The position numbers and the translations under genes were made by a program. The notes beneath the pieces are model-generated. The model searched no databases, was not told the origin of the DNA, and saw nothing but the letters and a program-made list of their open reading frames with translations. Below are positions 6,353 to 55,676 of a DNA stretch of 64,000 nt, piece by piece (within the stretch, counting starts at the first letter, position 1; each line of letters starts with the position of its first letter). Source of the stretch: Chitinophagales bacterium (lineage in GTDB: Bacteria; Bacteroidota; Bacteroidia; Chitinophagales; LD1); contig JAXLUM010000001.1 in assembly GCA_046329515.1 (NCBI GenBank), forward strand, positions 1,854,329-1,918,328, read 5' to 3'.

Positions 6353-6363
6353 AAGGAGGAACT

Positions 6364-7422
6364 ATGGCAAAAAATTTACTAAAATCCGTTTTTGTAACTG
6401 TAGTTATGGCCTTGCTGGCTTTGCAGGGTATTGCACAGGATATTCACTTCTCGCAGTATTACGCATCGCCTATGCAGCTAAACCCTGCATTAGCGGGTAT
6501 GAACAATTGCGACTATCGTATTTACGCCAACTTTCGCACCCAGTGGGTTACGGTTTCAACCGGTAATACCTATAGAACCGTTGCAGGCGGCGCTGATATG
6601 AGCATCGGCAAAGTAACCAAGTATAACAGCTTTGCAGGTTTGGGCATCTCTTTCTTTAGCGACCAGGCGGGCGATCTTAACTTCAACACTAACCGAATAG
6701 ACCTTTCATTTGCTTACCACTTTATGCTAAACCGTAAAGGAACTATGCAGATTTCTACCGGTATACAGGGCGCGTTTAACTACAACAGCATCAATCCTTC
6801 TAAGGCAACCTTTGATTCGCAATACGACCCTACAACAGGTATTGCTGACCCTAACGGGCAAAAAGAAAGCTTTGCCAAAACGCGTGTAATGTTCGGCGAT
6901 GCAGGCTTTGGCCTTTTGTATAGCGCCATAGTTAAGCAGCAAACCAATTTCTTTTTAGGTTTTGCCCTTAACCACCTTAACCAGCCTAAAATGTCGTTTC
7001 AACCTAATGGAACAACCAATGACGGCAGCGGTTTTGAGCGTTTGTACATGAAGATTACAATACATGGTGGAGCATCTTTACCTGTAGGTAAGCGCTTAGC
7101 TATACAGCCGCACTTTTTGGCGTTGGTACAGGGGCCTTCTTACCAGTTTAACTTAGGCTGTAACTTTAAAACCACTTTAGGAAACGTTACTACCAGCAGA
7201 ACAGCCTTGCACCTTGGTGTGCAATACCGCGGCTTGCTTGATGCAGTTGTGTTAAGCACCCGTATTGATGTAAAAGGTTTTGGCGCCGGTTTAAGCTATG
7301 ACATTAACGTATCTAAACTGACACCGGCCTCTCATTCAGTAGGTGCGCCTGAAGTTTCTATTATGTATCAGGGATGCGCCCGCAAGAAGCCTCATCCGGG
7401 GCACTGCCCTGCTTTGTTCTAA
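6364..7422 (+). CDS. PorP/SprF family type IX secretion system outer-membrane protein
   Basis: The 352-aa product has a signal peptide and the hallmark N-terminal motif QDIHFSQYYASPMQLNPALAG. The gene starts 11 nt after the type-B cargo gene and is preceded by AAGGAGGA. Confidence 0.9.
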   Translation: MAKNLLKSVFVTVVMALLALQGIAQDIHFSQYYASPMQLNPALAGMNNCDYRIYANFRTQWVTVSTGNTYRTVAGGADMSIGKVTKYNSFAGLGISFFSDQAGDLNFNTNRIDLSFAYHFMLNRKGTMQISTGIQGAFNYNSINPSKATFDSQYDPTTGIADPNGQKESFAKTRVMFGDAGFGLLYSAIVKQQTNFFLGFALNHLNQPKMSFQPNGTTNDGSGFERLYMKITIHGGASLPVGKRLAIQPHFLALVQGPSYQFNLGCNFKTTLGNVTTSRTALHLGVQYRGLLDAVVLSTRIDVKGFGAGLSYDINVSKLTPASHSVGAPEVSIMYQGCARKKPHPGHCPALF

Positions 7423-7510
7423 TTGAATGACTTGGTACTATAAAAAAAGCTGCCTTAAAAAAGTTGTGAGGTATCCTTTTATTTTCTTAAATAGTAACCT
7501 CTTTCAGAGC

Positions 7511-8218
7511 TTACAGCCACAAATGGTAGTAATATTGCTTATGGATAACATTAAATCCAAGCGCTTTGTAAAAAGCCATTGCACCACGGTTATCTTCCTG
7601 CGTGGATACCGTACATTTACTGTATCCATTTTGCGCTAAGTGATGTAGGCTATGGTGGATAAGAGCCCTACCTATTCCTTTAACCTGCTGTTTTTTGTTG
7701 GTTGCGATTAAGCTTATGGAAGGCGTCCCGTCCTTTATAGTAACGGAAATAAAACCCGCAAATTCAATTCCGATGTGGCAAACCCATACGAAGGTATTGG
7801 CCTCATCGGCGGTTTCCTTTTCTATCCAGCGTCGATACAACGCTTCAAAAGAGCCAACTGGAAAATTATTATCCAATTTGAACCGCGAAAACCCGCCGGC
7901 AATCAAGGCAAGTTCGTATAGTCTGGGGTCAACATTACCTGTATAACGACTTATATGCGAAGAAGGTTGAAATAAACTGGAGGAGGTATCAATGCTTAGT
8001 GTAACCTTCACATCGATAGGGGAAAGCCCTTGTAAGGTGTTAAGTGAGCCAATATCATCGTCTTCAACAACGATGTAAGCAAGTTCAATTTCATTCTGCC
8101 TTAACTCGGTTTGGAGCTGTACAAACTCAACATTAGTTAGCCCTTTGGGGTCTACCCTGGAAATGTTCAGTTGAAAAAAATCAGTATCCCACTGTTGTAT
8201 GGCAGCTGTGTAACTCAA
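7511..8218 (-). CDS. wecD: TDP-4-amino-4,6-dideoxyhexose N-acetyltransferase (WecD/RffC-like GNAT)
   Basis: The 235-aa product has an N-terminal QQWDTDFFQLNISRV. The central FSRFKLDNNFPVGSFEALYRRWIEKE and C-terminal STQEDNRGAMAFYKALGF resemble E. coli WecD (LTWENAFFG; SRFRAPWY...FYAQWIENA; ATQVGNTAALKRYIQSGA) as I recall it. The TTG start overlaps the stop of the upstream GT2 gene (TTGA at 8215-8218). Confidence 0.7.
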   Translation of the reverse strand: MSYTAAIQQWDTDFFQLNISRVDPKGLTNVEFVQLQTELRQNEIELAYIVVEDDDIGSLNTLQGLSPIDVKVTLSIDTSSSLFQPSSHISRYTGNVDPRLYELALIAGGFSRFKLDNNFPVGSFEALYRRWIEKETADEANTFVWVCHIGIEFAGFISVTIKDGTPSISLIATNKKQQVKGIGRALIHHSLHHLAQNGYSKCTVSTQEDNRGAMAFYKALGFNVIHKQYYYHLWL

Positions 8219-9165
8219 TTTGTATTCAGTGTTTTATGAACAATGAAATTGGGGCGATCCTTTACACCTTCAAAAATCTTAGCTATGTAAAGCCCTAGCA
8301 CGCCTAACATCGTTATAATCGTGCCTCCAATAAACCATATAGAAAAAATAAGGCTAGCATATCCTAAAACCTCAGTAGTACCCAAAATCCACCGCATAAT
8401 AATGTAGATTCCGAACATCAACGAAAAGAGAGAAATATACAAGCCTATTTTAACTGTTAAGCGCAGGGGTTTATCGGAGTTGGCAAGTATAATATTAAGC
8501 GCCAGTTGTAACAGCTTCGAAAAGTTGTAAGAAGTTTCACCTTCAAAACGTTCGCCATGCTCAATATCTACTGCAGTATGGGTAAAACCTACCCAGTTTA
8601 TCATAGCAGGAAAGTAGCGGATGTGTTCGGGTAATTTTATTATTTCATCAATTACTTGGCGGTGATAGACTCCAAAATTGGCTACCGTTCTATCAAATGT
8701 TGTTCCCGAAAGACTTGAAAGGAAAACGTGAAAAAGCTCCGAAGTTTTCCGCTTAAAAAAAGTATCCTTTCTGTTATGCCTTCGGCCGCGTACTATTTCA
8801 TAACCTTCCAAGGCTTTGGCATACATTAAGGGAATCTGGTCAGGCCTGTCCTGCAAATCGCAGTCCATTACTATTACCCATTCACCGGCAGTAAAGGTAA
8901 GCCCAGCTGAAATGGCATAATGCTGTCCGAAATTCCGGCTTAGTTTTACCCCCTTTACTTTCGGATTTTGCTTGCAAACTGCATCTATTTTCTGCCAAGT
9001 TTTATCAGGGCTACCATCTTCCACCAAAATAATTTCATATTTTTCGGTTAGTCGCGAAACCGACTCTTCAATCCGGAGCACAAGTTCCTCTACTATCAGT
9101 TCTGCCCGGTAAACGGGAGAAACAACACTTAACAAAGGCTTCTGTTTAAAACGACTTTCACCCAT
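8215..9165 (-). CDS. GT2 family polyprenyl-phosphate glycosyltransferase (GtrB/ArnC/DPM1-like)
   Basis: GT2 motifs are present: LLSVVSPVYRAE, ILVEDGSPD and the DxD-type VMDCDLQD. Two C-terminal TM helices (LRLTVKIGLYISLFSLMFGIYIIM; ASLIFSIWFIGGTIITMLGVLGLYIA) are typical of lipid-carrier-charging GT2 enzymes. The track start at 9183 is TTG, so I prefer the ATG at 9165. Confidence 0.8.
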   Translation of the reverse strand: MGESRFKQKPLLSVVSPVYRAELIVEELVLRIEESVSRLTEKYEIILVEDGSPDKTWQKIDAVCKQNPKVKGVKLSRNFGQHYAISAGLTFTAGEWVIVMDCDLQDRPDQIPLMYAKALEGYEIVRGRRHNRKDTFFKRKTSELFHVFLSSLSGTTFDRTVANFGVYHRQVIDEIIKLPEHIRYFPAMINWVGFTHTAVDIEHGERFEGETSYNFSKLLQLALNIILANSDKPLRLTVKIGLYISLFSLMFGIYIIMRWILGTTEVLGYASLIFSIWFIGGTIITMLGVLGLYIAKIFEGVKDRPNFIVHKTLNTN

Positions 9166-9418: not shown

Positions 9419-10570
9419 ATGTATATACCATTTAACAAACCCTTTATTTCGGGCAGGGAACTTGAATTTATATTGGAGGCCGTTAATTCCGGTAAAATTT
9501 CCGGGGACGGAATGTTTACCCGCAAGTGCCACGAGTTTTTTCAGACCAACTATGGTCTCAACAAATGCCTGCTAACTACTTCGTGTACGGATGCATTAGA
9601 AATGGCCGCGATACTAACAAAAATTCAGGAAGGTGATGAAGTAATAATGCCGTCCTACACTTTCGTTTCTACTGCAAATGCATTTAGATTGCGGGGTGCC
9701 AAAATTATTTTTGCTGATAGCCGGAAAGACCACCCGGGGGTTGATGAAGACCAAATTGAAAGCCTTATTACAACCAGAACAAAGGCTATTGTGCCGGTAC
9801 ATTATGCTGGAGTAGCCTGTCAAATGGATAGGATAACAGCATTGGCTAAAAAATACAGTCTGTTTGTAGTGGAAGATGCAGCACAAGCAATTGATTCATA
9901 CTACACGGGTGCAGACGGTAAAAAAAAGGCATTGGGCTCTATTGGTGATTTAGGTGCTTTTTCCTTTCACGAAACGAAGAATGTGATTGCCGGAGAAGGT
10001 GGAATGCTTGCTGTAAATAATAAAGAGTTTGCAGAAAGAAGTGAAATAATCCGGGAAAAAGGAACGAACCGTTCAGCCTTTTTTAGAGGAGAAGTAGATA
10101 AATATGGATGGGTGGATATTGGTAGCTCTTACCTACCATCAGATATAATTGCAGCGTTTTTATACGCGCAATTAGAGAACCTACAACTCATTCAGGAAAG
10201 AAGAAAACAGATATGGGAACTGTATTGGAAGCGTTTGAATCCACTGCAGAATGCTGGGAAAGTGAAGTTGCCCGTTATTCCGGATTACGCCACCAACAAT
10301 GCGCATATGTTCTACTTGGTACTAAACAGCCTCAAGGACAGAACCGGATTGATAGAAGCACTGAAGAAGTATGATATACATGCAGTGTTCCATTATGTTT
10401 CGCTTCATAAAAGCAGCTACTATGTGCAAGGTAAAGAAGCGCAACCCTTGCCCATGGTGGAATTGTATAGCGACCGCTTGTTGCGTCTACCTCTTTTCTT
10501 TGATCTGACGGATGAGCAGGTGAATATGATATCGGATATGATAATAAACTACTTCGGCTTACCTGCTTAG
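9419..10570 (+). CDS. wecE: dTDP-4-amino-4,6-dideoxyhexose (Fuc4N/Qui4N-type) PLP aminotransferase, DegT/WecE family
   Basis: The N-terminus of the 383-aa product, IPFNKPFISGRELEFILEAVNSGKISGDGMFTRKCHEFF...LLTTSCTDALEMAAIL...GDEVIMPSYTFVSTANAF.LRGAKI.F.D, tracks E. coli WecE closely as I recall it. The PLP-lysine motif SFHETKN is present. Confidence 0.85.
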   Translation: MYIPFNKPFISGRELEFILEAVNSGKISGDGMFTRKCHEFFQTNYGLNKCLLTTSCTDALEMAAILTKIQEGDEVIMPSYTFVSTANAFRLRGAKIIFADSRKDHPGVDEDQIESLITTRTKAIVPVHYAGVACQMDRITALAKKYSLFVVEDAAQAIDSYYTGADGKKKALGSIGDLGAFSFHETKNVIAGEGGMLAVNNKEFAERSEIIREKGTNRSAFFRGEVDKYGWVDIGSSYLPSDIIAAFLYAQLENLQLIQERRKQIWELYWKRLNPLQNAGKVKLPVIPDYATNNAHMFYLVLNSLKDRTGLIEALKKYDIHAVFHYVSLHKSSYYVQGKEAQPLPMVELYSDRLLRLPLFFDLTDEQVNMISDMIINYFGLPA

Positions 10571-19160: not shown

Positions 19161-19289
19161 GGTGCTTGCTGCTGTTTTTACTGAGTCTGTAATTGGATTT
19201 GCAAAGCTAAAATGAAATTAGCCTTCGTATTGCTAACGATTATTAATCCACAGTTGTTAAAAGCTAAAATGCTGAAGGAGAGAAAAAAA

Positions 19290-19392
19290 AGTGGGCAAGT
19301 TACCCATATCGCACCGCTCAACCGCTTACCTTTGCTCGGTTTCCCGCCTGGAGGAGTGAGCAGGAGCTGGTCGTACGGGGCTCGCCCGGCGC
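19290..19392 (-). ncRNA. ffs: Signal recognition particle RNA (small bacterial 4.5S type)
   Basis: The minus-strand RNA reads GCGCCGGGCGAGCCCCGUACGACCAGCUCCUGCUCACUCCUCCAGGCGGGAAACCGAGCAAAGGUAAGCGGUUGAGCGGUGCGAUAUGGGUAACUUGCCCAC and is followed by U8. The core CCAGG-CGG-GAAA-CCG-AGCA-AAGG parallels E. coli 4.5S CCAGGUCAGGUCCGGAAGGAAGCAGCCAAGG (GNRA loop plus AGCA). The 5' GGGCGAG pairs with the 3' CUUGCCC. The exact ends are uncertain by a few nt. Confidence 0.65.
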
Positions 19393-19516
19393 AAATATAG
19401 AAACTGTTGCCAATTTTCCGCTTCGCCTCAATAGAATTTGTGTTTAATTACTGTTTATGGCATAAGCTACCAAAACAGCCAAATAGGTATAAATTAGCCG
19501 CCCGTTAAATATCACT

Positions 19517-47262: not shown

Positions 47263-48504
47263 ATGACCACAGCAACATCAGCAGGTATAAGCAGAGCAGA
47301 GCATTTAATGGAACTGGAAGAACAGCACGGTGCGCATAACTACCATCCGCTGCCGGTTGTATTAGAACGCGGCCGGGGCGTGTATGTATGGGATGTAGAC
47401 GGCAAACGCTATTTAGATTGCCTTAGCGCCTACAGCGCCGTTAACCAGGGGCATTGCCACCAACTGATTATTGATGTTTTAAAACGCCAGGCCGAAAAGC
47501 TGACCCTAACCAGCCGCGCCTTTCATAACAATGTATTGGGCGAATACGAAAAGTATATAACCGAATACTTTGGCTACGATAAGGTGTTACCTATGAACAC
47601 CGGCGTTGAAGCGGTTGAAACGGCTATTAAACTGGCGCGCCGTTGGGCTTACGAGGTTAAAGGCGTTAAGGAGAATGCAGCTAAGATAATTGTGCCTGAA
47701 GGTAACTTCCATGGGCGCACACTGTTGGCTATTTCTGCCAGCACCGACCCTGATAGCTATGCAGGCTTTGGACCCTATGTGCCCAACTTTGTAAAAATAC
47801 CTTATAACGACCTTACCGCTTTAGCCGAAGCTTTAACAGATAAAGACGTAGCAGGCTTTATGGTTGAGCCTATACAAGGCGAAGCCGGCGTTAATGTGCC
47901 TGATGATAACTACCTGGCAAAAGCAAAATTCCTTTGCGAAAAGGCCGGCGTGTTGTTTATAGCCGATGAAGTGCAAACAGGCCTTGGCCGCACCGGCAAA
48001 ATGCTGGCTTGCGATTGGGAGGAAGTGCGCCCCGATATTTTGATTTTAGGCAAAGCCCTTAGCGGTGGCACCCTACCGGTTAGCGCTGTATTGGCTGATG
48101 ACCCCATTATGCTAACCATTAAGCCCGGCGAACACGGCAGTACGTATGGCGGTAATCCGCTGGCGGCTAAAGTAGCTATGGCTGCGCTGCAGGTTATTAA
48201 GGATGAGAACCTGGTGTATAACGCCTTTTACCTTGGCAAGTACTTCCGCCAGGAATTGGGCAAGATTAAACACAAGAGCATAAAACAAATACGCGGTAAA
48301 GGTTTACTAAACGCTATTGTATTAGACACCACCGACGAAAAAGCCGGCTGGAACCTTTGCGTTAAAATGATGAAGAAAGGCCTGTTGGCTAAACCAACGC
48401 ACAGCTACATCATTCGCCTTGCACCGCCTTTATGTATAACTAAGGAACAGGTAGATGAAGCCATTGCTATCATTACCGACGCCTTTAAGGACTTTAAAGG
48501 ATAG
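47263..48504 (+). CDS. rocD: Ornithine--oxo-acid aminotransferase
   Basis: The 413-aa product begins [45 protein letters not shown]. It has a class-III PLP lysine region ([12 protein letters not shown]) and [14 protein letters not shown]. Confidence 0.9.
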
Positions 48505-48535
48505 CTATAATCACATAGTAAATAGAAAACATAAG

Positions 48536-48562
48536 AAGGACTTCGTTTGAGGTCCTTTTTTT
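48536..48562 (+). terminator. Rho-independent terminator of rocD
   Basis: The stem AAGGACTTC / GAGGTCCTT (9 bp, one G-U pair) has a GTTT loop and is followed by a T-run. Confidence 0.65.
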
Positions 48563-48563
48563 A

Positions 48564-48715
48564 CTACCCCCTCCGCCAAACTTCGTATGGCTCGTCCCCC
48601 TTTCCGGGGGACAATAACCTAACTTCTTAGTTAAGCGCATTACTGTATTTAAACTGTCCTCCTGGCAGGAGGACGAGGAGATTCCGATAACAATCGGGAT
48701 TGACGGAGGAGGTAT
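48564..48715 (+). repeat. Multi-hairpin interspersed repeat, copy A (full length, 152 nt)
   Basis: Copy A contains four hairpins: GCCAAAC-TTC-GTATGGC, GTCCCCC-TTTCC-GGGGGAC, GTCCTCCT-GGC-AGGAGGAC and ATTCCGAT-AACA-ATCGGGAT. The 5' ACCCCCTCCGCC can pair with the 3' GACGGAGGAGGT. Homologous copies lie at 53123 and 54198. Confidence 0.85.
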
Positions 48716-48885
48716 TGAGCACAGAATGATATTAAAGACACATTCCCATTCCGATTACTTAATACGGGGCCTGATATTCTGCATTAAGCCCCTTCTATCC
48801 TACCTTCACAAAAAATATTTAGCAATAGAAATAGCTCTCTACCAGCTAATTAACAGCAGCTATCCACAGCCCTGAATCTCGCCTC

Positions 48886-48916
48886 TTGCCTTAACTACTC
48901 TTTTTGATTATATTTG
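48886..48916 (+). promoter_or_regulatory. Candidate Bacteroidota sigma-A promoter for the first island ORF
   Basis: A TTG at 48886-48888 is followed by a 20-nt spacer and then TATATTTG at 48909-48916 (TAnnTTTG consensus), 25 nt before the ATG at 48941. Confidence 0.35.
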
Positions 48917-48940
48917 TACCATTAAGGTAATTTAAAGTAT

Positions 48941-49378
48941 ATGACTAAACAGGACATTTTAAAGGAAAAACCGCTGGACCCGGAGCTGCTGCGTCCGCAG
49001 TTTTGGCAAATGCTGGAGGATAGCGAAATAGATGAGGCCTTTCAAAAACTGGATGAGCTGACTATGGAACTGGCCCTCCGCCTGCAACGCATGGAGCAAA
49101 CCGACCTGTTTAAACTAACCAACCAACAGGCGCTTGACACCATACGCCAAATGGAGCGCCAGCGCTTTGTGGTAGAAACCCTGTTTAACGCGCGTGAATT
49201 CGCCATGCAGCTTATTGATGCCCGCAAACAGAACCGTCTGCTGCAACTGCAATTAACAGAACGCAACTTTCAACTGCAATGCACCAATGATGCCCTAATA
49301 CAAACCCACGAAAGCCTTGAGTTTACTACGGAGCTGTGTGAGAAATATATGGACCAGTTGGCTAGTGGTAAAGGGTAA
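48941..49378 (+). CDS. Hypothetical coiled-coil protein
   Basis: The 145-aa product is rich in Leu/Gln/Glu/Arg heptad-like stretches (LQRMEQTDLFKL...RKQNRLLQLQLTERNFQLQ). I recognised no catalytic motif. Confidence 0.6.
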   Translation: MTKQDILKEKPLDPELLRPQFWQMLEDSEIDEAFQKLDELTMELALRLQRMEQTDLFKLTNQQALDTIRQMERQRFVVETLFNAREFAMQLIDARKQNRLLQLQLTERNFQLQCTNDALIQTHESLEFTTELCEKYMDQLASGKG

Positions 49379-49510
49379 ATGGCAAGCGGTGAACGGTAAA
49401 TAGCAAGTGGTGAATACAAACTCTTACTTCATACTTCTCAATTCTAACTTCTCAATTCTAAACTCTCACTTCAAACTTCTTATTTCTCACTTCATACTTC
49501 AAACTTTTCA
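49360..49510 (+). repeat. Iteron-like direct-repeat cluster immediately upstream of the ATPase gene
   Basis: A 21-bp unit is repeated in tandem: GGTAAATGGCAAGCGGTGAAC at 49374-49394 and GGTAAATAGCAAGTGGTGAAT at 49395-49415, with a partial copy just upstream. A perfect 14-nt tandem CTTCTCAATTCTAA occurs twice (49434-49461). At least four ACTTCAWACTTC-type words lie between 49426 and 49506. Confidence 0.8.
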
Positions 49511-49513
49511 CTA

Positions 49514-50530
49514 ATGGAAGACAAACTCCGCCAAATGATTGACCGCTTAAATACTGACCGCGGCGAGAAACTATTACTAATGAAACCCGCTGCACAATGG
49601 ATGCTGGAGGCCAGCCGCACGCCGGACCCTAAACTGCTGTTCAGCACCTTTTGGCGCGAGGGCGAACTGGCTATATTGTTTGCTGATACCAACGTGGGCA
49701 AAAGCATACTGGCCGTGCAAATTGCCGATGCCATAAGCCGTGGCCAGGGCGATGAACTGTGCCGCGTGGCCGTGCCTGCCCAAAAGGTATTGTATATGGA
49801 CTTTGAACTTAGCGCCAAGCAATTTCAAAAGCGCTATTGTAATGAGGCGGGGCGCATGTATAACTTCAGCGATAACTTTATACGCGTTGAGCTTAACCGC
49901 CACATGAAGCTGCTTACTGATTTTGACGGCGCCCTGTGGGCCGGAATTGAACGCGCCATTACCGAAAGCGGCGCACGTGTGCTTATAGTTGATAACCTTA
50001 CCGCCCTAAAACTGCAAAGCACCGAAGCCGCCAAGGAGGCCATACCGCTAATGAATAACCTGCTGCAACTTAAACACAAACTGGGCCTTAGCATATTGGT
50101 GGTGGCGCACACGCCCAAGCGCAACCGCAGCAACCCCATTACCGAAAACGACCTTGCCGGCAGCAAACTTATAAGCAACCTGGCCGATACCCTTTTTGCC
50201 ATTGGCCACAGCGCCATGGGCAGCGACATGCGCTACCTTATACACGTAAAGGACCGCAGCGGCAACAAACAGTTTGGGTACGACAATGTAATTAGCTGCC
50301 GCGTAGTAAAAACCGATGCACAACTCTGCTTTATGCCGCAGGGTTACGGCCCCGAAAAGGACCACCTTAGCCCACCCGAAACCGGCGATAGCCGCGCACA
50401 ACTGGATAGCGATATTGTGGATTTGTATAACAGCAACCCCAACCTAAGCAACCGCGAAATTGCCCGGCAGTTGAATACAAACCCTATGAAGGTAACAAGG
50501 GTATTGCAACGCGAAAAGCTGCTTGATTAA
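49514..50530 (+). CDS. RecA-fold (AAA_25/RepA-like) ATPase with a C-terminal helix-turn-helix
   Basis: The 338-aa product has Walker A FADTNVGKS (nt 49685-49705) and Walker B ARVLIVDNLTAL, followed by SILVVAHTPK. The C-terminal NLSNREIARQLNTNPMKVTRVLQRE looks like an HTH. The gene is GC-rich relative to its neighbours. Confidence 0.8.
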   Translation: MEDKLRQMIDRLNTDRGEKLLLMKPAAQWMLEASRTPDPKLLFSTFWREGELAILFADTNVGKSILAVQIADAISRGQGDELCRVAVPAQKVLYMDFELSAKQFQKRYCNEAGRMYNFSDNFIRVELNRHMKLLTDFDGALWAGIERAITESGARVLIVDNLTALKLQSTEAAKEAIPLMNNLLQLKHKLGLSILVVAHTPKRNRSNPITENDLAGSKLISNLADTLFAIGHSAMGSDMRYLIHVKDRSGNKQFGYDNVISCRVVKTDAQLCFMPQGYGPEKDHLSPPETGDSRAQLDSDIVDLYNSNPNLSNREIARQLNTNPMKVTRVLQREKLLD

Positions 50531-50582
50531 GTGTAACACTGTAACAGTTGTAACACGCATAACAGCCGTTACACTGTTACAT
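50531..50582. repeat. Palindromic element, copy 1 (abuts the ATPase stop codon)
   Basis: The sequence is GTGTAACAC-TGTAACAGTTGTAAC-ACGCATAACAGCC-GTTACACTGTTACA-T, homologous to 52958-52999. Confidence 0.85.
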
Positions 50583-50691
50583 CCCTTCCGTCATTCAGTT
50601 TCTACTTTCCAAAAAAAATCTTTCGTGAACTGATGAAAAGCTTGGTTCGTGCAATTACCTATTGTACCTTAGGCATACAAAACCCCTAACT

Positions 50692-50907
50692 ATGAAAAGC
50701 AATTGTCAAAACCATGAATTTAATTTTTGGGCCAACTTATGTTTAGGCATTTACTACTTTGCTGAATACAATGATATAAGTGCTAAACGCAAAATAGACC
50801 CAATCAAAAAAATAGCTGCTAAAAATGAAGCTGCTGAAAAGTCCATAGACTTTACTCTAAAATCGCTTGGTGCTCTTATAGATTACCACAACTGTAGACG
50901 CGGATAA
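50692..50907 (+). CDS. Hypothetical small protein (71 aa from the ATG)
   Basis: The sequence is MKSNCQNHEFNFWANLCLGIYYFAEYNDISAKRKIDPIKKIAAKNEAAEKSIDFTLKSLGALIDYHNCRRG. The track start at 50662 is TTG. The ORF is AT-rich and I recognised no family; coding status is uncertain. Confidence 0.35.
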   Translation: MKSNCQNHEFNFWANLCLGIYYFAEYNDISAKRKIDPIKKIAAKNEAAEKSIDFTLKSLGALIDYHNCRRG

Positions 50908-51087
50908 TTACCCCTCGCTGCTTTGCATTTTGTCCTGAAGGTGGGCTACCATCTTTAGATATTCCTCTTTTTCCTTAGGTGGCATGGCATCCAGTTTCCT
51001 TTTGGCTTCTGCCAAAGCCTCAGGCGAAAAAAAACGCTTGAGCGCTTTTTGATGTAACGCTTCTAATTCTTCTTTGCTGCGTTCCAT
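50908..51087 (-). CDS. Hypothetical small helical protein (59 aa; below the ORF-track threshold)
   Basis: My own translation is MERSKEELEALHQKALKRFFSPEALAEAKRKLDAMPPKEKEEYLKMVAHLQDKMQSSEG. It is divergent from the methyltransferase gene. Its stop abuts the stop of the 50692 ORF (TAATTA at 50905-50910). Confidence 0.4.
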   Translation of the reverse strand: MERSKEELEALHQKALKRFFSPEALAEAKRKLDAMPPKEKEEYLKMVAHLQDKMQSSEG

Positions 51088-51223
51088 ATACTAAAGTGGA
51101 TATTAACATAAAGCAATTAGTATAAAAGTAAACAGAAATGTTTACTTCTATAATCAAATTGACTTCTTTTAAGTCGGATTGACTTATTGTAATTATGTAC
51201 CAATAGTGCCTAATACAGAGTTT

Positions 51224-51294
51224 GTCAGTCTGAGCTTGTCGAAGACGACAATCGTATTGCGCAGTTAAGCACCCTTCGACAGGCTCAGGGTGAC
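51224..51294. repeat. Inverted-repeat (MITE/REP-like) element of the GTCACCCTGAGCCTGTCGAAGGG family
   Basis: The 21-nt arms GTCAGTCTGAGCTTGTCGAAG and CTTCGACAGGCTCAGGGTGAC have 1 mismatch and 2 G-T pairs, with a 29-nt loop. The element ends 31 nt upstream of the methyltransferase ATG. The spurious ORF 51020-51334 reads HPEPVEGC through it. Confidence 0.8.
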
Positions 51295-51325
51295 AGAGCG
51301 CTATATTATAAAATGGTAATAACCC

Positions 51326-52957
51326 ATGAACCACCTGTACTTTGGCGATAGCCTTGATATACTAAAGGAACTGCATGCCCAGCACCCCGAAGGCTTTATT
51401 GACCTAATATATATTGACCCGCCTTTTAACAGCAAGCGCAATTACAATGTGTTGTTTGAAACCGTAGATATACATGATGCCAAGGCACAGAAAGAAGCCT
51501 TTGCCGATACCTGGAGCAACGTAAGTTATTTTGATACCATAAGTGAGTTAAAGGCTTCAGAATTACATCTCACTAATTTGTTAGAAGGATTACAAGCTGC
51601 TGGTATTAGTAAAAGCGCGATTAGCTATTTATCGACTATGGCTATACGTATTTTTTATATACACAAAGTATTAAAGTCTACAGGCAGTTTCTACTTGCAT
51701 TGCGACACCACCATGAGCCACTATCTTAAAATAATCTGTGATATCATTTTTGGTGTTAAGAATTTCAGAAACGATATTATCTGGAAAAGAAGTGATGCAA
51801 AAGGTGATATCAGTCAAGGCGCTAAGCACCTGGGTAGAAATACAGATAACATTCTTTTTTACACAAAATCCGATGACGCCTATATCACCCAGTTGTACAC
51901 TCCTATGACCGAAGATTACATTGATAGATTTTATAGGCACATTGAAGAAGGAACTGGCAGAAGGTATAAGCTCGATAATATGCTCGGCCCAGGTGGCGCA
52001 GCAAAAGGCAATCCATATTACGAAGTGATGGGAATAAAGAGATATTGGCGTTACAGTAAGGAAAAAATGGCTGAGCTTATTAAAGCGGGTCGCGTAATTC
52101 AGACTAACCCAGGTACAGTACCCATGTATAAAAGATATTTGGACGAATCAAAAGGTGTGCCTTTAGGTAATTTATGGATTGACATAGACCTTGTACGCGG
52201 TCATTCTAAAGAAAAGCTAGGATATCCAACACAAAAGCCTGTAGCCTTGTTAGAAAGGATTATTCAAATAAGCAGTAAACCCGGTGATTTGGTTGCTGAC
52301 TTCTTTTGCGGTTGCGGTACTACCATAGCTGCTGCCCAAAAGCTAAACCGTAAATGGATAGGCGTTGATATTAGCCACTTAGCCGTAGGCTTAATACGCA
52401 AGCGCTTAATTGATAACTATGGCGAAGAGATAAACAAGACCTTTGATATAAAAGGCTTACCTAAGGATGTTGCCAGTGCACACATGCTGGCCGAGCAGCC
52501 GCAGGGCCGTATGCGTTTTCAGGATTGGGTTATTGAAACCCTTATTGGCGGCGTAACCAACGAAAAGAAAGTGGGCGATGGCGGTTATGATGGCTACACT
52601 ACGTTAGAAGTAGAGAAGGGTAAAAAAGAGATAGTATATATTGAAGTTAAAAGCGGTAACATAAACGTTAGCACCCTGCGCAGCTTTGCTAAAACCGTGC
52701 AACAGCAAAAAGGCAGTGCCGGTATATTAGTTTGTTTTAAAGAACAAATTACCAAGGGCATGTTAAACGAAGCCAAGGGCGAGGGTTACTTCCGCGAAGA
52801 TTTATTCGGCAACCGCTTCGATAAAATACAGATAATAAGTGTAGAAGATTTACTGGATGGTAAAATGCCTGAACTGCCCCGCAGTACCGAAACAGGCCCA
52901 TTCAAAAAAGCCGAGAAAGCCGAAAAGAAAGGCAAAAGCAAGGGATTGTTTGATTAG
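51326..52957 (+). CDS. Beta-class (N6-adenine/N4-cytosine type, DPPF) DNA methyltransferase fused to a C-terminal PD-(D/E)XK Mrr-like restriction-endonuclease domain
   Basis: In the 543-aa product, motif IV IYIDPPF (nt 51416-51427) lies N-terminal to the AdoMet motif I DFFCGCGTT (nt 52298-52321), which is the beta permutation. QKP lies before motif I. The C-terminal VGDGGYDGY...IVYIEVKSG (D418/D422, E440-V-K442) fits the Mrr_cat-type D...(D/E)xK signature. Confidence 0.85.
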   Translation: MNHLYFGDSLDILKELHAQHPEGFIDLIYIDPPFNSKRNYNVLFETVDIHDAKAQKEAFADTWSNVSYFDTISELKASELHLTNLLEGLQAAGISKSAISYLSTMAIRIFYIHKVLKSTGSFYLHCDTTMSHYLKIICDIIFGVKNFRNDIIWKRSDAKGDISQGAKHLGRNTDNILFYTKSDDAYITQLYTPMTEDYIDRFYRHIEEGTGRRYKLDNMLGPGGAAKGNPYYEVMGIKRYWRYSKEKMAELIKAGRVIQTNPGTVPMYKRYLDESKGVPLGNLWIDIDLVRGHSKEKLGYPTQKPVALLERIIQISSKPGDLVADFFCGCGTTIAAAQKLNRKWIGVDISHLAVGLIRKRLIDNYGEEINKTFDIKGLPKDVASAHMLAEQPQGRMRFQDWVIETLIGGVTNEKKVGDGGYDGYTTLEVEKGKKEIVYIEVKSGNINVSTLRSFAKTVQQQKGSAGILVCFKEQITKGMLNEAKGEGYFREDLFGNRFDKIQIISVEDLLDGKMPELPRSTETGPFKKAEKAEKKGKSKGLFD

Positions 52958-52999
52958 TGTAACAGTGTAACACCCATAACAGCCGTTACACTGTTACAT
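52958..52999. repeat. Palindromic element, copy 2 (abuts the methyltransferase stop codon)
   Basis: The 14-bp arms TGTAACAGTGTAAC and GTTACACTGTTACA are perfect, with a 13-nt loop ACCCATAACAGCC. Confidence 0.9.
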
Positions 53000-53122
53000 T
53001 AAAGTCAACTACCGTATATTTATCGTCCTTGCAATTCTAAGGACCGGTGAAGAACCCATGCCTTAGTTCAATGTAGGGTGCGCCTTTCTGCAAAGAGAGG
53101 CGTTTTATCTTTCGCCCTATTC

Positions 53123-53225
53123 AATAACCCAGCTTCTTAATTAAGCGCTACACTGTATTTAAACTGTCCTCCTACACAGGAGGACGAGGAAATCCCGATA
53201 ACAATCGGGATTGACGGAGGAGGTA
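53123..53225 (+). repeat. Multi-hairpin interspersed repeat, copy B (3' 103 nt only)
   Basis: Copy B aligns with 48613-48715 of copy A with about 12-13 differences by eye. It retains the hairpins GTCCTCCT-ACAC-AGGAGGAC and ATCCCGAT-AACA-ATCGGGAT. Confidence 0.85.
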
Positions 53226-53259
53226 GTGCATTTTACCTGCCTACTTATATATTCGCCGC

Positions 53260-53907
53260 ATGAAAACAGCTAAATATCCTGCGTTAATAGTACTCGCTCT
53301 TTCGGTAAGCGCCATGCTACTGCTAAATGCCTGCAAAAAGGAAAGCCTGCCGAATTGGGATGTTCCTAAAATTAAAACCTGGACCTACAGTTTATTGCAA
53401 ACCGGTGTGCATGTTACCATGCACTACACCTACGATACTGATGGCCGCGTAACGGAGGAACTCTCTACCAATGACGCTTCCTCAACAACCTATACTAATA
53501 CGTTTACTTATAGCAATAACTATGTTTTGGTTAGCTACCATGGCACCTCGCCTGATACTATTTGGTTGAATGCCGATGGATTGAATACAGCCTTTACGTT
53601 TAATGCAGATGGCTATAGAACGGCAGGTAATAGCGGCGAAACGTATGAGTGGGTGGATGGCAATACGGCAACGGCTTACGGCAATACCGGTGATACTACC
53701 CATTTTACCTACGCTACGGATAAGCAGAATACCATAGGCTATTACAATAAGGGTATCTATACCATGGGCAAAGACTCAAAAAATCCTGTTCTTACGGCTA
53801 CCAGCTCAAGCGGGGCTATTTACAACTATACCTACACCTACGACCAACAAGGCCGTATTGCAAGCGTAACAAGCGCTACCGATACCAGTTATTATACGTA
53901 TTACTAA
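53260..53907 (+). CDS. Hypothetical lipoprotein
   Basis: The 215-aa product has a signal peptide with a lipobox-like LLNAC. It is Thr/Tyr/Asn-rich with repeated TYTY motifs. I recognised no family. Confidence 0.7.
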   Translation: MKTAKYPALIVLALSVSAMLLLNACKKESLPNWDVPKIKTWTYSLLQTGVHVTMHYTYDTDGRVTEELSTNDASSTTYTNTFTYSNNYVLVSYHGTSPDTIWLNADGLNTAFTFNADGYRTAGNSGETYEWVDGNTATAYGNTGDTTHFTYATDKQNTIGYYNKGIYTMGKDSKNPVLTATSSSGAIYNYTYTYDQQGRIASVTSATDTSYYTYY

Positions 53908-53974
53908 GCTGCAATTTACCTGCGCCAGTTGAGTTCGAATTGACGGGATTGATTCAGCATCTCGTTTAACTGAG

Positions 53975-54182
53975 ATTCCGTGTCGCAGCACGGAATGACG
54001 GGACTGGTTGTATTTTTTCCCCTCCTTGGCTAAGGAGGGGCAGAAACAGACTCCGCTTGCGGAGGATGGTTCGGGGTGGTTTGATATTACTACCACCTCT
54101 ACTTTGAAAACGCTCCGCATTTTTAAATTCTTCTCCTACTTAAAAAGGAGGAGAATCTAAACACAAGCACGGAATGACGGGA
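53975..54182. repeat. Cluster of short GC-rich hairpin repeats
   Basis: ATTCCGTG-TCGCAG-CACGGAAT lies at 53975-53996 and CCCCTCCTT-GGCT-AAGGAGGGG at 54019-54040. TTCTCCT...AGGAGGAGAA follows, and the word CACGGAATGACGGGA occurs twice (53989-54003 and 54168-54182). Confidence 0.75.
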
Positions 54183-54197
54183 ATGTGTTTTTGCATA

Positions 54198-54363
54198 CTA
54201 CCCCCTCCGCCATACTTCGTATGGCTCGTCCCCCTGTCCCGAAGTATCGGGAGGGGGACAATAACCTAACTTCTTAGTTAAGCGCAGTACTGTATTTAAA
54301 CTGTCCTACTACACAGGAGGACGAGGAAATCACGATTGCAATCGGGATTGACGGAGGAGGTAT
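54198..54363 (+). repeat. Multi-hairpin interspersed repeat, copy C (full length, 166 nt, with an extra nested hairpin)
   Basis: Copy C has the same architecture as copy A, plus an inserted TCCCGAAGTATCGGGA hairpin inside the GTCCCCC/GGGGGAC stem-loop. Confidence 0.85.
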
Positions 54364-54467
54364 TTAATTCCTCCCTCTGCCTCACTGCGTTCGGCTTCTC
54401 CCTCCAAAGGGAGACAGGTTTGCCCTCCGCGATGGAGATGGTTTTACTAACCCCGCCTCCCAACTAC

Positions 54468-55676
54468 TTACATTTTCCCGAAGCGTTTTAATGCGGTATG
54501 GTTGGTGGCAGTGGTAAGCTTTATAAGGTAACTACCGGCAGCTAAGGGGCTTACATCAATGGTAGCTGTAGCCTGGGGCGTTAACACCAATTGACCATTC
54601 AGGTTAAACACTTCTACTTTGATAATAGCTTCGTTACAGGTAATGTTTAGGTAATTGCCTGCGGGGTTGGGGTAAAGTTGCAGGCTTGCTTCGTTCAAAT
54701 AAGTAACTGCTGAAGGCTGGATAACTATGTTAGGTGTGCCATGGCGAACTACCAAACCATTAGCGCCTACGGCCCAACCAAGGGTATCATTCAAAAAGAA
54801 CAGGGCATTAGGCGTAGCCGTATGTAGGGTATCCATAGTCCATGTTGTGCCGCCATTAGTCGTTTTGCGCAGGGGTTGGTCGTTACCGAAAGAAGAAGAA
54901 ACTACCGCCCAACCGTTTTGGCTATCAGTAAAGTGAACATCGTGCTTACCGGCATTAGTGCCCGAGGCTTTGTCCGTCCATGTGCTGCCGTTAGCTGTAA
55001 TTTTAAACGCGGAAGGATTGCCACCTGCCCAGCCTTCCGTTTCTGAAAGCATTTGCAGGCATATAAGATTTAAGGTGGAAACTGAACCTGCAGCTACCTG
55101 TTCGGTCCAGCTTGCGCCGGCATCATCAGTATATACTACCAGCCCGCGGCTGCCTACTGCCCAGCCTCTGGTGCCGCTTAAAAAGTGCATGGCATAAATG
55201 CCTTTGCTTGGTGCAGCTACGGTTTGCCAGCTTGCGCCACCGTTGGTAGTGCGCTTTACAATACCCGGCACTCCGTTACTGCCTGCTATGTAGCCGGTAT
55301 CAGGCGTTACAAAAAATACATCTTCATAGTTAATCTGGTTGCCGCTATCAATGGCCAGCCAGGTATTGCCGCCATCATCAGTAGTAAGTATGCTTTGCTT
55401 GCCTCCCACTACCCAACCCTTAGTGGGGCTTGTAAAAAACACTGAGGTAAAACCCGTGCTTGTAACCGGCGAGGTTTGCGCTGCCCAGTTTGTTCCGCCA
55501 TCGTTTGTAGTTAGTATTGTGCCCTGTTGGCCAACAGCCCAACCTTTGCTTTCGTTAATAAAAAACACATCGGTTAGTTCTTTGGTAGTGCCGCTGTTTA
55601 GGGGCGTCCATTCCTGTGCGTTAGCTATAAAACATAAAAAGAGGGAAAGGGTAAATAGTGTAAGTTTTGCTTGCAT
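54468..55676 (-). CDS. T9SS type-A cargo: BNR/Asp-box (Ycf48-like) beta-propeller plus C-terminal sorting domain
   Basis: The 402-aa product has a signal peptide and Asp-boxes (TNDGGTNW, TDDGGNTW, TTNGGASW, TDDAGASW, TTNGGTTW). The C-terminus LQLYPNPAGNYLNI...AGSYLIKL fits the type-A CTD. Confidence 0.85.
   Translation of the reverse strand: MQAKLTLFTLSLFLCFIANAQEWTPLNSGTTKELTDVFFINESKGWAVGQQGTILTTNDGGTNWAAQTSPVTSTGFTSVFFTSPTKGWVVGGKQSILTTDDGGNTWLAIDSGNQINYEDVFFVTPDTGYIAGSNGVPGIVKRTTNGGASWQTVAAPSKGIYAMHFLSGTRGWAVGSRGLVVYTDDAGASWTEQVAAGSVSTLNLICLQMLSETEGWAGGNPSAFKITANGSTWTDKASGTNAGKHDVHFTDSQNGWAVVSSSFGNDQPLRKTTNGGTTWTMDTLHTATPNALFFLNDTLGWAVGANGLVVRHGTPNIVIQPSAVTYLNEASLQLYPNPAGNYLNITCNEAIIKVEVFNLNGQLVLTPQATATIDVSPLAAGSYLIKLTTATNHTALKRFGKM

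Follow-up and report, generated by a model that had tools for sequence, protein, structure and literature searches.

Palindromic repeat arrays at the stop codons of a helicase-like ATPase and a defence-type cargo gene in a Bacteroidota island are probable iteron-type sites

A 64,000-nucleotide stretch of DNA from a Chitinophagales bacterium (NCBI GenBank assembly GCA_046329515.1, contig JAXLUM010000001.1, positions 1,854,329 to 1,918,328 of the forward strand), which as a whole we call the window and number from its first letter, contains an island of ~4.5 kb, running from ~48.7 to 53.1 kb, in which the stop codons of both large genes are followed directly by a palindromic array of short repeats. 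From left to right the island consists of an open reading frame (ORF) designated ORF145, a tract with 7-nt periodicity, an ATPase gene, a first array (array 1), an AT-rich spacer, a methyltransferase-nuclease gene, a second array (array 2) and a terminator-like hairpin. The ATPase (49514-50530, + strand; 338 amino acids) matches Pfam AAA_25 (8e-24) and, weakly, HTH_24. The second large gene, which we refer to as the cargo gene (51326-52957, + strand; 543 amino acids), encodes an N6_N4 DNA methyltransferase fused to an Mrr-like (NA-iREase1) nuclease according to Pfam, and is called MTase_II/III by PADLOC; its family is widespread. An earlier, sequence-only reading of this DNA had described near-identical palindromes abutting both stop codons, and this was confirmed to the base: copy 1 (array 1, 50531-50582) lies directly 3' of the ATPase stop TAA (50528-50530) and copy 2 (array 2, 52958-52999) directly 3' of the methyltransferase stop TAG (52955-52957), and these are the sole copies in the 64 kb. 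The ATPase ORF terminates in CTGCTTGATTAA, followed by GTGTAACACTGTAACAGTTGTAACACGCATAACAGCCGTTACACTGTTACAT, and the methyltransferase ORF in TTGTTTGATTAG, followed by TGTAACAGTGTAACACCCATAACAGCCGTTACACTGTTACAT.

Both arrays are built from 7-bp units spaced 8-9 bp apart, with direct units first and inverted units after them. Array 1 has three TGTAACA units, starting at 50532, 50540 and 50549, then a degenerate CATAACA at 50558 and two inverted units, while array 2, which has the same orientation, has two TGTAACA units (52958 and 52966), one degenerate unit (52975) and two inverted units. The 25-nt 3' part, CATAACAGCCGTTACACTGTTACAT, is the same in the two copies without a single difference, and a repeat finder aligned the copies over a 34-nt stretch at 97% identity and gave copy 2 arms of 18 nt with 94% complementarity. 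When up to 3 mismatches were permitted, the shared 25-mer occurred twice in the 64 kb, with 0.00 occurrences expected (100 shuffles); and 7 of the 15 TGTAACA heptamers in the whole window fall inside the two arrays. The direct and inverted halves are separated by a central spacer of 13 nt, ACGCATAACAGCC or ACCCATAACAGCC, which is not AT-rich. As RNA, the two palindromes are predicted to fold at -20.1 and -24.8 kcal/mol (z = -4.6 and -6.1). Copy 1 also marks a sharp break in base composition, as the sequence-only reading had pointed out: GC content falls from 0.51-0.53 within the ATPase gene to 0.34-0.40 past the palindrome, and stays at 0.34-0.45 across the methyltransferase gene.

We compared the window with ATPase loci (numbered with the prefix L) taken from protein look-ups (L001-L005, L135-L138), from one genome per species (L006-L085), from a metagenome (L086) and from IMG/VR (L088-L134), which together span Bacteroidota genomes, metagenomes and viral contigs. 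An array was scored where one 6-mer occurred at least four times within 105 nt 3' of the ATPase stop. This was the case in 62% of 134 homologous loci, compared with 1.1% of 2605 background windows from the same loci. The position of the arrays is conserved to within a few nucleotides: the first unit is found between -8 and +12 nt relative to the ATPase stop in 96% of 82 non-redundant arrays and overlaps the stop codon itself in 50 of them, typically as ...ctgTAACA. Direct units precede inverted ones in 73 of the 82, the spacing is 9 bp in 208 of 285 intervals, and arrays contain four to eleven units, mostly five or six, over a median span of 52 bp. Only some relatives, among them L111, have arrays with an AT-rich centre. 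As a negative control, homologues whose C-terminus lacks the helix-turn-helix (HTH) domain (L104-116, L125-134) have no array. Among the 2.9 million viral contigs of IMG/VR, the exact window-type palindrome gave no match, even with a variable loop allowed. A looser pattern of two direct and two inverted TGTAACA units gave 10, of which five adjoin ATPase homologues, two follow a terminase-like gene and two are coding repeats; the remaining match (L146) is preceded by a 10-codon ORF only and by no ATPase homologue. Literature searches found no description of the ATPase-array pair in Bacteroidota. In L004, and also in L005, the ATPase array is followed further downstream by a small HTH-like ORF (8070-8243 in L004), from whose stop a different array of ~5 GGTTAAC units (8243-8295 in L004) extends, so that a DNA-binding gene immediately 5' of its target may be an arrangement that recurs in these elements.

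The three-helix HTH at the C-terminus of the ATPase (residues ~291-333) has the recognition helix TNPMKVTRVLQR, and across the family the repeat unit changes together with this helix. Helices of the form ..(P/H/Q/A)MKVxR.. (TNPMKVTR in the window) pair with GTAAC units in 61 loci; HK(K/R)VGR, SKSKVGR or SKS(K/T)V, and GKSTV pair with GGGAC; S(V/L)G(T/A)VN(K/R) pairs with TGAAC; HTRV, HMRV and PLTSVN pair with GGAAC; SEGAVRK pairs with CGTAC and SLGKIQR with GATAC. The co-variation holds over more than 80 loci and four near-isogenic sister pairs. The ATPases of the window and L086 are 91% identical, and within the last 30 residues, which form the HTH, they differ at four positions, all in the recognition helix (NPMKVTRVLQ in the window, NHVKVMRVLK in L086), while the unit changes from TGTAACA to GGTACA/GGAACA. 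L021 and L079, which occupy one chromosomal site, have ATPase cores that are 98% identical and HTH regions that are 41% identical, with units TACTAACA in L021 and GGTAACA in L079; their nucleotide homology ends 153 nt before the stop and returns just past array 2. In the syntenic pair L135 and L137, homology stops 57 nt before the stop codon, and helix HRRVSR with unit TGGGAC in the former is replaced by helix HFKVSR with unit GGCACA in the latter. Similarly, L111 and L121 differ in the HTH region, and have GGGACA and CGATAC, respectively, at both arrays of each. This co-variation supports a reading of the arrays by the ATPase HTH as strongly as sequence can, and it makes it very probable that the arrays are binding sites of that domain. 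The suggestion in the sequence-only reading that the HTH might bind the palindrome is, as far as sequence analysis reaches, answered in the affirmative.

The ATPase itself is predicted to have the fold of a superfamily 4 (SF4) helicase of the T7 gp4/DnaB/RepA-like type. In an AlphaFold model (pLDDT 86) a RecA-type core is followed by three C-terminal helices, and the best Foldseek matches of this model are T7 gp4, DnaB, KaiC, RadA and RSF1010 RepA (1nlf). In a PDB profile search with the ATPase family, T7 gp4 helicase was the only match of solved structure, and PHROGs returned primase/helicase and DnaB-like helicase families. Homologues are numerous (~4000 at E<=1e-3), and 47 are on predicted viral contigs in IMG/VR; a metagenome scan for close relatives gave two loci. 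A typical relative lies in a run of genes composed of a tyrosine integrase, an unknown gene, HTH_17, the ATPase, the array and a primase-like gene (Zn_ribbon_16 + DUF6371), which in 46 loci begins ~20 nt past the array. Given the fold, the integrase and primase neighbours and the viral contigs, the context of the ATPase is the replication module of integrative phage- or satellite-like elements.

The island in the window is a reduced version of this arrangement. Its left neighbour (47263-48504) is a class-III aminotransferase gene according to Pfam, and so not an integrase. No integrase was found in the 64-kb window by tblastn with three tyrosine integrases of related elements (E<=1e-4), with Pfam covering part of the ORFs, nor was a primase found there by tblastn with family members. 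The window likewise contains no tRNA or tmRNA gene that could be an integration target. Being without integrase and primase, the island, which consists of ORF145, the ATPase and the cargo, is therefore a reduced member of the family, and may rely on functions of a host or helper.

In the family as a whole, only a minority of members have a second cognate array downstream: one is present in 15 of 83 array-bearing loci with ~2 Mb of flanking DNA, nearly always at most ~3.5 kb from the ATPase. Yet all reduced islands of the window's type with enough available DNA, seven in number, have one, and what lies between the arrays varies. In the window, array 2 directly follows the stop of the methyltransferase-nuclease gene. 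In three islands the cargo is a KAP NTPase, and array 2 is located ~8 nt past its stop in L086 and at the stop in L002 and L135. In L137 a three-gene operon is enclosed, with array 2 22 nt past the last stop, while in L021 the stop of a gene for a 306-amino-acid protein is the TAA of array 2's first unit. In L079 the cargo encodes a DUF4062 protein on the opposite strand, and array 2 lies 60 nt upstream of its start. Both arrays of an island (L021, L079, L086, L002, L135) have the unit in common and differ in the number of units and the spacer, and array 2 therefore looks maintained rather than recently copied. L086 and L135 both come from one metagenome-assembled genome (WBZM01, GCA_009612935.1), in which islands of different specificity, GGTACA/GGAACA and TGGGAC, respectively, thus co-reside, with a KAP NTPase between the arrays in both.

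Between near-isogenic islands, the exchanged block extends from within the HTH-coding region through the end of array 2. In view of these boundaries, the "cassette" is best described as a specificity-plus-cargo module composed of HTH, array 1, cargo and array 2. The proposal in the sequence-only reading that the palindromes delimit a cassette stands to the extent that different cargo lies between cognate copies in the seven islands. The palindrome is not scattered over many unrelated gene ends, with two copies in 64 kb and extra arrays mostly near an ATPase, nor are the ATPase and methyltransferase genes always contiguous. The versions of that proposal that appealed to attC sites or to terminators fared less well, as set out below.

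The methyltransferase family offers a view of array 2 from the side of the cargo. A similarity (TTGATTA(A)G) just 5' of both copies, and the shared L-(L/F)-D ending of the two proteins, had been noted in the sequence-only reading; the similarity is real. Yet ...GLFD-stop is the native C-terminus of the methyltransferase family and is seen in unrelated contexts. The shared ending is therefore no evidence of common coding ancestry, and array 2 starts exactly at a native stop codon. On this sequence comparison the ending is a coincidence or at most a microhomology joint; a derivation of the methyltransferase's last codons from the ATPase 3' end was ruled out.

Three of eight contexts of the methyltransferase family are bracketed by arrays, each with a different unit: the window (TGTAACA), L142 (GGAAC, with an AAA_25 ATPase downstream) and L140 (GGTACA). 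The other five homologues (L139, L141, L150, L151, L152) have no array bracket. The possibility that arrays travel with the methyltransferase gene was likewise ruled out, five of the eight contexts being arrayless and the three unit types matching the local context. In L140, a methyltransferase homologue (68% identical) lies between arrays at 4818-4904 and 6650-6749, each of ~90-100 bp with ~ten GGTACA units, which are mutually inverted and have a palindromic core, TGTACCATGTGGTACA, at their outer ends. No ATPase homologue was found within 5 kb, and the arrangement resembles one giant palindrome split in two, or else paired terminal inverted repeats. In L142, seven copies of one GTTCC/GGAAC palindromic array, in three spacer subtypes, occur within 6.6 kb (2199-8831), each 2-20 nt past a + strand stop or paired back to back. 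They separate the methyltransferase homologue, an AAA_25 ATPase, a 118-amino-acid ORF and a GH3/anthrone-oxygenase pair; homology between the copies is limited to the ~50-bp array, with sharp ends, and some copies precede T-runs. Finally, in two IMG/VR contigs (L147, 1184-1227; L148, 3918-3961) an array of 3+3 TGTAACA units is located at the TAG of a terminase-large-subunit-like ORF, with no ATPase homologue in the ~13 kb available.

By analogy with known replicons, we consider it probable that the palindromes are iteron-type binding or loading sites of an SF4 helicase-initiator, array 2 being a cognate cluster that encloses an accessory slot. In this model, the C-terminal HTH of the ATPase would read the 7-bp sites in both arrays. 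Array 1, the family-wide site at or overlapping the ATPase stop, would be the place where the ATPase assembles or loads, its most likely role being that of replication origin in an integrative, phage- or satellite-like element of Bacteroidota. Array 2 would form a second cognate cluster, comparable to P4 crr or to the extra iteron clusters of plasmids, and the two arrays would enclose a slot for accessory genes, occupied in the window by the methyltransferase-nuclease fusion with its foreign base composition. We put it at somewhat better than an even chance that origin or loading activity resides in the arrays and that array 2 is a functional partner in it; it is unlikely that they directly mediate cassette exchange. 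Instead, the HTH-coding 3' end, array 1, cargo and array 2 would be inherited and exchanged as one block, because both arrays must match the HTH, and the exchange would probably proceed via recombination in the conserved helicase core and in the repeats that flank the island.

The nearest parallel is found in the staphylococcal pathogenicity islands (SaPIs) and other phage-inducible chromosomal islands, where the C-terminal winged helix of the helicase-initiator binds six to twelve iterons directly 3' of its own ORF, the iterons face opposite ways about a centre and specificity differs between islands (PMC9371898). The ATPase family shares with this Rep-ori system a helicase with a C-terminal DNA-binding domain (here AAA_25 + HTH_24, residues 291-333), short opposed iterons directly 3' of the helicase ORF, and an element-specific iteron specificity matched to the DNA-binding domain. 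Typical relatives, though not the window island, also share an adjacent primase gene and the setting of an integrative phage-related element. There are differences as well. SaPI Rep is an AAA+ (SF3 or MCM-like) helicase, whereas the ATPase has a RecA-type SF4 fold; since its best sequence and fold matches are SF4 and not AAA+, it would be an analogue rather than a homologue of SaPI Rep and P4 alpha. The SaPI primase gene lies upstream of rep, while the primase-like gene lies downstream of the array here. The centre of the SaPI origin is AT-rich, whereas that of the window arrays is short and not AT-rich (AT-rich DNA does follow array 1). Unlike in SaPIs, the first unit usually overlaps the stop codon, and a second array that encloses cargo has not been described for SaPIs.

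Phage P4 provides a precedent for such a second site. P4 alpha binds the same octamer iterons at ori and at the distant crr, several kb apart and with genes between them; in the iteron plasmids P1 (incA) and F (incC), extra iteron clusters outside the origin pair with the origin. The P1 and F clusters flank the rep gene itself, whereas the pair described here flanks accessory cargo. In P4 alpha, too, the helicase domain is followed by a winged helix (PMC2777425), in keeping with the layout of the ATPase. P4 alpha differs from the ATPase in being a primase fused to an SF3 helicase and in the phylum of its host, and the P4 defence hotspot is elsewhere in the genome, not between ori and crr, unlike the cargo slot here. 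Judged against these systems, the array is likely to be of iteron type and coupled to a helicase-initiator whose superfamily and phylum are unlike those of the described cases, while being fused to a stop codon and duplicated around a defence slot.

Several points weigh against this interpretation. The case for it is one of co-variation and context, and the window island, with neither primase nor integrase, may not replicate at all. The centre of the window arrays, a 13-nt spacer that is not AT-rich, departs from SaPI origins. Arrays also occur at the stops of unrelated genes (the cargo, the terminase-like genes of L147 and L148, and the seven L142 sites), and the methyltransferase homologue of L140 lies between two ten-unit arrays in a stretch with no ATPase gene up to 5 kb away; both sets of cases fit a role as recombination sites or mobile palindromes at least as well. 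The T-runs next to some L142 arrays suggest that these may also terminate transcription. Taken together, the L140, L142 and terminase-like sites and the native-stop position of array 2 are left unexplained by a simple origin model, and leave room for recombination or replication at the arrays.

For these reasons we weighed a role for the arrays as recombination sites that delimit mobile gene cassettes, integron-like without IntI, with the ATPase-HTH as the factor that recognises the site. Movement could then rely on an unidentified recombinase, on homologous recombination between arrays or on replication started at an array. The resemblance to integrons is real: imperfect palindromes lie directly past the stop of each enclosed gene, direct copies bracket variable and often defence-type cargo, and their inner ends read ..AAC and GTT... 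The core sites of attC are R'' RYYYAAC and R' GTTRRRY, from each of which the window's GTGTAAC and GTTACAC are one position off. Beginning 0-22 nt past the stop of the enclosed + strand gene, with cargo that differs across the seven islands, the arrays are placed as cassette boundaries should be. The seven L142 arrays split off single genes within 6.6 kb, with back-to-back pairs as at cassette junctions and inter-copy homology confined to ~50 bp; L140 has the order array, methyltransferase, array with no ATPase nearby; one methyltransferase family occupies slots of three unit specificities (window, L140, L142); and the window arrays share 25-34 nt of identity. Nevertheless, the swaps have their left boundary not at array 1 but within the ATPase gene, 57-153 nt 5' of its stop, and cargo-flanking arrays always match the resident HTH, whereas a moving cassette would be expected to bring a mismatched array. 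No recombinase was found in either the window or the reduced islands, neither circular forms nor empty sites were seen, and most loci have a single array inside a helicase-primase operon. A cassette role is hence doubtful. The attC form of it, entertained in the sequence-only reading, is disfavoured also by the site itself, which lies at the ATPase stop, is usually single-copy in a helicase-primase operon and is an array of 7-bp units that co-vary with the HTH, with no IntI or integrase homologue found in the window. Equally tentative is a bolder version, in which the arrays are the boundaries of an integrase-free gene-capture platform and an SF4 helicase-HTH finds the iterated palindromes that follow stop codons; each gene would be cut out together with its array, be copied from that array and enter the DNA again where an array already resides, building up integron-like banks of defence genes in Bacteroidota, for which the window, L142 and L140 would be candidates.

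The remaining alternatives appear weaker. That the palindromes act at the RNA level, as factor-independent terminators or 3' stabilising hairpins after both large genes, was the other suggestion of the sequence-only reading; it is in line with their position at both stops, the stability of the predicted hairpins (z as low as -6.1) and the T-runs after some L142 copies. It is nonetheless very unlikely, as the window copies have no T-run, a 13-nt loop and AT-rich stems, and a terminator scan calls neither of them while it does call a canonical hairpin further on, at 53080-53103. In most relatives the array lies ~20 nt before the start of a co-oriented primase-like gene, where termination would be counter-productive, array 1 of L086 folds no better than shuffled sequence (z = -1.66), and a hairpin needs neither direct repeats, nor a fixed 9-bp spacing, nor co-variation with a recognition helix. 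Alternatively, the palindromes could be selfish repeats resembling repetitive extragenic palindromes (REPs) or miniature inverted-repeat transposable elements (MITEs) that have spread to gene ends, with the ATPase island as source or mobiliser. In REP/RAYT systems, short cognate sites, palindromic or iterated, lie on either side of a protein gene and evolve in step with the protein, much as unit and helix do here. The multi-copy arrays of L142 and L077, the array after a terminase-like gene with no ATPase in ~13 kb, and the inverted ten-unit arrays of L140, with their resemblance to terminal inverted repeats, agree with such an origin. Against this, there is no transposase or HUH nuclease, the arrays are not dispersed genome-wide in the available DNA (two copies in the 64-kb window; 15 of 83 loci with further cognate arrays, hardly any of which lie more than 3.5 kb from the ATPase), and none of the 2.9 million viral contigs contains the exact window-type palindrome, making this explanation a highly improbable one. 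The last is that the arrays are operators, at which the ATPase-HTH, as a regulator or sensor, would repress or insulate a potentially toxic defence gene by two-sided binding and looping. Paired cognate sites surround the cargo in seven islands, the cargo genes are of nuclease or NTPase defence type, and the ATPase fold is also like that of KaiC-type signalling ATPases. Yet what is found most often, on viral contigs and in elements with an integrase, is one array located between helicase-like and primase-like genes, array 2 is downstream of the cargo rather than at a promoter, and 743 nt separate array 1 of the window from the cargo start codon, so that we give an operator role very little credence.

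The comparison supplies a concrete and testable pair of cis-element and protein for a very common and unannotated "AAA family ATPase" of Bacteroidota mobile elements and phages. The natural series of helix-unit combinations (GTAAC, GGGAC, GGAAC, GGTAC, GGCAC, TGAAC, CTAAC, CGTAC and GATAC) could serve as a specificity code for the HTH and as a set of orthogonal replicon parts for Bacteroidota genetics. The comparison also points to a small accessory slot between two cognate arrays that collects defence-type genes and is exchanged along with the specificity determinant. Should cassettes turn out to recombine or replicate at boundaries set by the arrays, this would be a new route of defence-gene exchange outside integrons.

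Turning to the remainder of the island, ORF145 (48941-49378, + strand) encodes a helical protein and accompanies the ATPase as a conserved partner on its 5' side: the corresponding ORFs of L006 and L086 are 55-58% identical to it, and ORFs of 107-155 amino acids take its position in other islands. It has no significant family in Pfam or PHROGs. Directly 5' of the ATPase start, the 7-nt-periodic tract (49359-49512, + strand) repeats GGTRAAN ~7 times and then TCTNACT ~13 times. Tracts with the same periodicity and a different sequence are found at the equivalent position in L086 (6915-6985), L006 (1490-1575) and L079 (~8870-8955), so that over 70-150 nt the periodicity is kept across relatives while the sequence is not. 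Similar heptad tracts lie 5' of some methyltransferase homologues (L150, L151). Possible functions include a promoter, an unwinding element and a slippage tract.

The AT-rich spacer (50583-51325; GC 0.34-0.40) between array 1 and the cargo gene contains two small ORFs, at 50662-50907 (+ strand; 81 amino acids) and 50908-51087 (- strand; 59 amino acids, with a highly charged, helical product), neither of which has a family match in Pfam or PHROGs. The terminator scan places a terminator-like hairpin within the spacer, at 51019-51042, and a REP-like inverted repeat of the GTCA..CTGAGC..GTCGAAG type lies at ~51223-51295. Repeats of that type recur many times around the L021, L079 and L086 islands. 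Beyond array 2, the canonical terminator-like hairpin at 53080-53103 (+ strand), which has a T tail, is the probable real 3' end of the cargo transcript.

The neighbours of the island are the genes for the aminotransferase, a lipoprotein and a BNR protein. On both sides the island is bordered by direct repeats of what we call the R element, which is ~110-170 nt long and has the core CTGTATTTAAACTGTCC and two predicted hairpins; the ~110-nt repeat shared by the two flanks spans 48606-48717 and 53116-53228. All three copies in the window are near the island and on the + strand: copy 1 (48562-48717) forms its left flank, copy 2 (53116-53232) its right flank, and copy 3 (54196-54369), which is closest in sequence to copy 1, lies past the lipoprotein gene (53260-53907). 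The element also flanks the non-syntenic L086 island on both sides (6050-6165 and 10010-10125) and stands to the right of the L135 island (~8790-8850, - strand); its core has no other occurrence in ~2 Mb of loci. It could be an att or target sequence of the island, or a lineage-specific REP. We also considered the R element as a structured RNA, for which compensatory change in 3 of 18 pairs (6 sequences) was unconvincing. Rfam searches of the whole window at the gathering threshold, and of 48400-54500 at an E-value threshold, gave no match at the palindromes or the R repeats. Apart from sub-threshold noise, they returned a Bacteroidales-type small signal recognition particle (SRP) RNA at 19289-19394 (- strand; 81.8 bits), the sole gathering-threshold match in the window.

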